A DNA stretch of 64,000 nucleotides from Escherichia coli (GTDB lineage: Bacteria > Pseudomonadota > Gammaproteobacteria > Enterobacterales > Enterobacteriaceae): NCBI RefSeq assembly GCF_050920415.1, contig NZ_CP169309.1; one strand, 5' to 3'. Positions 53,594-54,106 of this stretch are shown here, piece by piece. The notes beneath the pieces were generated by a model. It had not been told where the DNA came from and did not search any database. It worked only from the letters and a program-made list of their open reading frames with translations. The translations under genes and the position numbers were made by a program. How positions within the stretch are numbered: position 1 is the first letter of the stretch; each line of letters starts with the position of its first letter.

Positions 53594-54106
53594 TTAGCTG
53601 AGGCGTTGAGGGCCAGCACGGATGCCTTGCGCCTGGCTTATCCAGACGGGCGTGCTGAATTTTGCTTGCGGGGTAAAATGCGCATAATCAATGCGATAAC
53701 CCTTTTCAGACGGCGTGCCTTCCTGGGTCAACAGCGCGCTGAGCGTATCCAGTAATGCAAGATGTTGCGCCTGAAGAGGCAAAGATTCTTCAGCAACGGG
53801 CAGCGTTTGCGGTGCCATTGCGAAGGAAAGATGACGGATTACCGTGCGAATGGCATGTTGATGCCAGTAATCAACGGAATAGTTCGAATTCGGGCGGCGC
53901 GTGTTCGCTTCCAGCAAGGCCAATTGACCAAAGTTAACTTTGGCTGAAGGCTCGTGGTTGCGGGTTGTCGCTTTTGCGGGCGCGTTTGGTTCGGCGGCGT
54001 TGCTGAGCGCAGGCAAACCTAAACTCGCCGCGACCATCCCTAATAAGAGATGCGGCCAGAAGTAGCGTTTACCAAACTGTCGCCAGCGCGTCAGTATTCC
54101 ACTCAC
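53594..54106 (-). CDS. secM: Secretion monitor SecM (translation-arrest leader peptide regulating secA)
   Basis: ORF 53594..54259; recognised protein begins (M)[22 protein letters not shown] with GTG start at 54106; arrest motif [17 protein letters not shown] near C-terminus. Confidence 0.92.

Follow-up and report, generated by a model that had tools for sequence, protein, structure and literature searches.

The window, as we call the whole stretch of 64,000 nucleotides of Escherichia coli DNA analysed here, carries on its minus strand, which was read directly over 53300-54500, an open reading frame of 170 codons, which is flanked by lpxC and secA and lies directly upstream of the latter in the same orientation. 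This reading frame is, with near certainty, E. coli secM, the cis-acting translational regulator of secA. Between the secM stop codon (53594) and the secA ATG (53532), both on the minus strand, a spacer of 61 nucleotides is present. The features of the locus are the following, with the basis of each given in brackets:

54257..54310, minus strand: hairpin resembling a terminator, followed by U9, after lpxC and upstream of secM (direct folding: -24.9 kcal/mol, z=-4.43)
53594..54106, minus strand: secM coding sequence, 170 codons plus TAA with a GTG start (sequence read and re-translation)
54104..54106, minus strand: secM GTG initiation codon (alike in the window and K-12; annotated start of the coding sequence)
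53996..54106, minus strand: predicted SecM export signal, about residues 1-37 (composition read from the translation)
53609..53659, minus strand: arrest motif F150-P166, 17 residues, codons 150-166 (re-translation, orthologue alignment, literature motif and PDB chains)
53609..53614, minus strand: stall point, Gly165 GGC 53614..53612 in the P site and Pro166 CCU 53611..53609 in the A site (codons read from the sequence, stall from the literature)
53597..53610, minus strand: 5' arm of the predicted masking helix, CUCAACGCCUC.GC, secM codons 166-170 (minimum-free-energy fold and consensus structure)
53596..53594, minus strand: secM TAA stop codon (re-translation of the minus strand)
53549..53563, minus strand: predicted local hairpin CUCCGC-AAC-GCGGGG (consensus pairing and minimum-free-energy fold of the arrest state)
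53541..53554, minus strand: 3' arm of the predicted masking helix, GCGGGGCGUUUGAG, which includes GAG 53543..53541 (minimum-free-energy fold and consensus structure)
50827..53532, minus strand: secA, the regulated downstream gene, 901 amino acids with the ATG at 53532 (ORF list and annotation)

The identity of the gene was approached on the DNA as well as on the protein level. A query of 1001 nucleotides covering the locus found matches in 5424 of 5426 complete E. coli genomes, one per genome, and in the matched genomes the locus is annotated as lpxC / secM / secA. The best match, DNA of E. coli MFDS1022581, is 100% identical over 1 kb; its RefSeq secM converts to positions 54106..53594 of the window and its secA start to 53532. 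In both NZ_CP169399.1 and K-12 (b0097), the position of secM in RefSeq corresponds to that in the window. All of the window is collinear, in reverse orientation, with K-12 at 97.8-160.5 kb. The position upstream of secA, which an earlier note on this DNA had assigned, is thus borne out by the reading frames, the RefSeq annotation and the synteny. On the protein level, the Pfam family PF06558 (SecM) is hit with 195.9 bits (E=4.2e-58; cut-off 25 bits) and the NCBIfam equivalog NF002799 ("secA translation cis-regulator SecM") with 231.2 bits (cut-off 100 bits), the latter spanning residues 3-169 of the 170. A protein database search returned 762 relatives, for which the name SecM is consistent across the sources. 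Furthermore, the SecM ("Secretion monitor") chains of the stalled-ribosome structures 9vvi/9xwo (165 amino acids), 8qoa (34 amino acids) and 3jbv are identical to the window protein over the aligned range. An alignment to SecM had been suggested as a check; here, Pfam, NCBIfam, the K-12 SecM and the orthologues all match. The order lpxC-secM-secA is conserved in seven further genera, together with a secM-secA spacer of 56-63 nucleotides. The designation "secM leader" holds for the identity of the gene only, since SecM is a secreted protein of 170 residues with a signal peptide and not a short leader peptide.

At other places, the comparison of the window with K-12 revealed several differences. 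An insertion of about 1.28 kb at ~21925-23200, within the cueO/gcd interval, is a copy of IS621 (IS110 family), an element present in 2244 of the 5426 complete E. coli genomes. The transposase of this copy is not encoded in one continuous frame: its longest reading frame comprises 215 amino acids (22361..23008, minus strand), the remainder lies in two other frames, and a deletion of one nucleotide is found near 22404 relative to the copy in NZ_CP169399.1, which is itself annotated as "frameshifted". Probably, this transposase is either a pseudogene or the result of a sequencing error. With megablast, ~3209-10894, the counterpart of the yad fimbrial operon (yadN-yadV-htrE-yadMLKC) of K-12, could not be aligned to the K-12 genome, while the flanks align with 90-93%; judged by its sequence, the yad operon region is strongly diverged or replaced in comparison to K-12. 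The segment 32062-32309 aligns twice to K-12 129613-129764, located in yacH, which points to a different copy number of a repeat within this gene. Rfam models of RNAs were also found on both strands. At 56498-56587 (minus strand), in the chromosomal region of the ftsA 3' end and the ftsZ 5' region, PssrA scores 105.5 bits (gathering score 69); this match is chromosomal, whereas the family is described as plasmid-encoded ("Plasmid-encoded Shigella sRNA A"). Above their gathering scores are also STnc40 at 50782-50851 (minus strand; secA 3' end and secA-mutT spacer), naRNA4, a REP-derived nucleoid-associated RNA, at 50198-50275 (minus strand; between mutT and yacG) and tp2 at 38811-38924 (plus strand; aroP-pdhR intergenic region, as placed by the collinearity with K-12), all three being established models of E. 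coli or Salmonella sRNAs.

The N-terminal part of SecM displays the composition of a predicted Sec export signal. It consists of a basic N-region (R7, R9, K13, R14), a hydrophobic core of 15 residues and a cleavage-type motif S-N-A, and cleavage would occur after A37. Residues 2-33 are almost invariant across genera in an alignment of 14 sequences, which comprises the window SecM and 13 orthologues from Escherichia, Citrobacter, Salmonella, Intestinirhabdus, Enterobacter, Raoultella, Yokenella and Phytobacter with identities of 70-96%. [quoted passage not shown]

At the C-terminus, the arrest motif F150-P166 occupies exactly the positions proposed for it before (~53609-53659), and re-translation, which had been named as the check that could refute the proposal, found the motif present in an intact frame. 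Over ~128,000 six-frame positions, the expectation of an exact match of 17 residues is roughly 1e-17 (positions multiplied by 20^-17), so that this match is not a product of chance. The PDB chains 8qoa, 3jbv and 9vvi are identical to the window protein across the motif. Within the alignment, F150, W155, I156, G161, I162, R163, A164, G165 and P166 are invariant in 14/14 sequences; residues ~129-149, just upstream of the motif, represent the most variable part of SecM. The arrest motif known from the literature is FxxxxWIxxxxGIRAGP, in which R163, G165 and P166 have been shown to be essential, and F150, W155, I156, G161 and I162 to contribute. These literature-listed positions coincide with the conserved ones.

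For the identical motif in E. coli, the arrest has been shown by cryo-EM (PDB 8qoa) and by ribosome profiling. The stalled complex carries peptidyl-tRNA(Gly165) in its P site, while its A site is occupied by Pro166-tRNA. From a structure at 2.0 Å resolution, the block has been attributed to the geometry of the RAG165 segment and the A-site proline, by which the nucleophilic attack is prevented. The earlier note had placed the stall at the Pro codon, which is right as to the position; the proline is, however, not yet incorporated at this point. The further check proposed there, a stall peak in ribosome profiling, is already available from published work on E. coli: monosome as well as disome profiling detect ribosomes stalled at Pro166 in vivo, and this stall is strong enough to calibrate the A-site assignment.

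The second element of the locus is found on the RNA level, at the junction of secM and secA. Here, GAG 53543..53541 sits eight nucleotides upstream of the secA AUG and, from its sequence and position, is likely the secA Shine-Dalgarno sequence. When the junction is folded, CUCAACGCCUC.GC is paired with GCGGGGCGUUUGAG in the minimum-free-energy structure (z=-2.78), and the consensus structure of nine junctions (the window, K-12 and seven other genera) contains the same helix of 13 pairs. In this register, 95.7% of the cells are paired, in comparison to 30-55% after a shift of the 3' partners by 1-3 columns. Double-sided compensatory changes in the masking helix were not found among the nine sequences, and a shuffle control was uninformative, since 437-500 of 500 shuffles reach the observed values. 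The helix is therefore supported by conserved pairing potential and thermodynamics, and the conservation of its 5' arm is confounded, as the same arm encodes invariant amino acids. A "compensatory pair" in Salmonella (codon 168 CGC to CGU with GGGGCG to GGGGCA) was considered and rejected, because in the consensus register it amounts to a C.A mismatch at 70:130 and a U.G wobble at 72:128. Searching the locus against Rfam at E<=1 gave no match, and no family covers the junction. A local hairpin at 53549-53563 is predicted as well and is conserved to the same degree as the masking helix, with 92.6% of the cells paired; for this hairpin too, covariation was not observed in the junction alignment and the shuffle control was uninformative. 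The local hairpin and the masking helix share a G-run and are thus mutually exclusive.

How the position of the ribosome would affect the junction was modelled by folding only the RNA 3' of the ribosome, with free RNA beginning 16 nucleotides after the first base of the P site. The predicted probability of GAG being unpaired was as follows:

P site at codons 135, 150 and 158: 0.01
P site at codon 162: 0.59
arrest position, Gly165 in the P site: 0.24 (ribosome masking is modelled crudely here, and weak pairing that persists leaves GAG just 24% unpaired in the arrest state)
stop codon in the A site: 0.19

With the ribosome at the arrest position, the long masking helix gives way to the local hairpin in the predicted fold. 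The folds suggest that a ribosome parked at Gly165/Pro166 would raise the accessibility of the Shine-Dalgarno sequence from about 0.01 to 0.24. As a prediction, this fits the scheme described in the literature, where the secA ribosome-binding site becomes exposed through the stalled ribosome. A model barring pairing solely within the ribosomal footprint was dropped, since it allowed mRNA located 5' of the ribosome to base-pair with the Shine-Dalgarno region.

Taken in sequence, the following mechanism would result. Translation would begin at GTG 54106, and the N-terminal signal peptide would send the nascent chain to the Sec export machinery. With Gly165 in the P site and Pro166 in the A site, FxxxxWIxxxxGIRAGP inside the exit tunnel would block the formation of the peptide bond, and the ribosome would pause. 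Such a paused ribosome would physically cover secM codons 165-169, which otherwise would be paired with the GGGGCGUUUGAG segment holding the secA Shine-Dalgarno sequence; the secA ribosome-binding site would be freed and secA translated. Active export would pull on the nascent chain and end the pause, and a pulling force has indeed been reported to relieve the SecM arrest. A short pause would hence indicate working secretion with secA kept low, and a long pause would drive secA up. The arrest itself, the assignment of the P and A sites, the relief by pulling force and the regulation of secA are taken from the literature, and the present analysis contributes the identity and coordinates of the gene, its motif and synteny, the finding that the arrest residues are conserved, and the potential of the helix to pair, together with its predicted opening. 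The role given to the gene before, a stalling peptide that couples secA translation to the secretion status, is in agreement with the annotation, the family models, the structures, the conservation and the literature.

Two other readings of the locus have to be weighed against an ordinary, intact secM starting at GTG 54106, and the first concerns this start codon. The mechanical ORF list gives a reading frame of 221 amino acids beginning with TTG 54259, and some database gene calls start at the position of GTG 54181, so that the true gene could be the 221-codon frame (TTG 54259 to 53594) or the GTG 54181 version and the annotated start be wrong. However, the N-terminal extension lies outside of both protein families: in the long form, Pfam SecM matches residues 75-218, and the NCBIfam equivalog spans residues 3-169 of the 170-residue form. 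The orthologues of other genera mostly begin with MSGILTRW, the database proteins starting at GTG 54181 are frameshifted or truncated versions, and the RefSeq as well as the K-12 curation agree on GTG 54106. Longer database versions (180-225 amino acids) had also been considered in favour of an upstream start and were rejected as frameshifted or chimeric gene calls. A further argument against the long frame is that TTG 54259 lies inside the U-run behind lpxC, where the folded hairpin with nine U (54257..54310) looks like a terminator. A pattern scan for promoters and terminators found no terminator on the minus strand; it missed the lpxC hairpin due to the long and branched loop of the latter. 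In a consensus promoter scan, no promoter-like site was found upstream of secM, and the single promoter-like site scored overall equals the chance expectation. Closer to the gene, GGGAUGG is read 7-13 nucleotides upstream of the secM GTG and could serve as its Shine-Dalgarno sequence. An upstream start is accordingly judged to be extremely improbable, and the GTG at 54106, which the earlier note had named, is confirmed by re-translation, RefSeq and K-12. That note was also right that the ORF track extends the gene too far upstream, yet not in its statement that the extension reaches an ATG: according to re-translation and the mechanical ORF list, the extension contains no in-frame ATG, and TTG 54259 and GTG 54181 are the only start-type codons in frame.

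The second reading concerns the allele. The K-12 laboratory allele is the basis of essentially all SecM experiments, and between the lpxC stop codon and secA codon 11 (841 nucleotides) the window differs from it by 14 single bases. K-12 SecM (b0097, NP_414639.2) resides in the same locus lpxC-secM-secA, also comprises 170 amino acids with a GTG start, and shares the identical arrest motif, the secA ribosome-binding region and the masking helix; the sole amino acid change is T170S (ACC to AGC, 53598; 169/170 identical), to which 13 other single-base changes are added, with arrest motif and predicted masking unaffected. Two of the differences concern the junction structure or its vicinity: G53598 belongs to the 5' arm and G53565 to the loop of the secM-secA spacer. 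Together they make the predicted structure about 3.8 kcal/mol more stable than that of K-12. This might be read as a decayed or non-functional secM, in which T170S and G53565 have altered or abolished the regulation of secA. Nevertheless, the reading frame is intact and the exchange falls after the stall point. Serine is found at position 170 in 13/13 orthologues compared, which marks the window as the common state and T170 of K-12 as the exception, and G53598 forms a G-C pair that is present in 7/9 junction sequences and is restored here relative to K-12. Both alleles are predicted to mask the Shine-Dalgarno sequence equally (0.0055 vs 0.0067 unpaired). A decayed allele has, on this evidence, a negligible chance of being the right explanation, and from the predicted structures no functional difference between the window allele and the K-12 allele would be expected. 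It is conceivable, although very unlikely, that due to the more stable S170/G53565 junction natural E. coli might set basal secA translation or its arrest-dependent induction slightly differently from K-12, and that the switch might have a deliberate second state in the form of the local hairpin 53549-53563.

The intact secM of the window can be compared to its relatives in other genera and to systems of similar logic. In Citrobacter, Salmonella, Enterobacter, Raoultella, Yokenella, Phytobacter and Intestinirhabdus, SecM is 68-96% identical to the window protein and has the same synteny, invariant arrest residues and an invariant signal-peptide core, and its C-terminus ...GIRAGPQ(R/H)LS is common to these genera and the window. 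Differences to the window protein are located in residues ~129-149 and between the fixed positions of the motif. MifM, VemP, the RAPP-type proteins ApcA/ApdA/ApdP and CliM are described as sharing the principle of an upstream reading frame that stalls the ribosome, with the stall being relieved by the localization machinery that is regulated. From SecM they are set apart by unrelated sequences and a different stall chemistry. The window gene is SecM proper and not a MifM-, VemP-, RAPP- or CliM-type gene.

SecM is the founding "monitoring substrate", a nascent peptide that senses secretion via mechanical force and controls the neighbouring gene by stalling its own ribosome. The secM described here is an ordinary textbook gene, already known and with nothing new to it. 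Since its coordinates, its start codon and its function were all called right from the sequence, the locus is useful as a positive control. Beyond this, finding secM confirms that the window represents the dcw-secA region of E. coli, and it adds no new biology.
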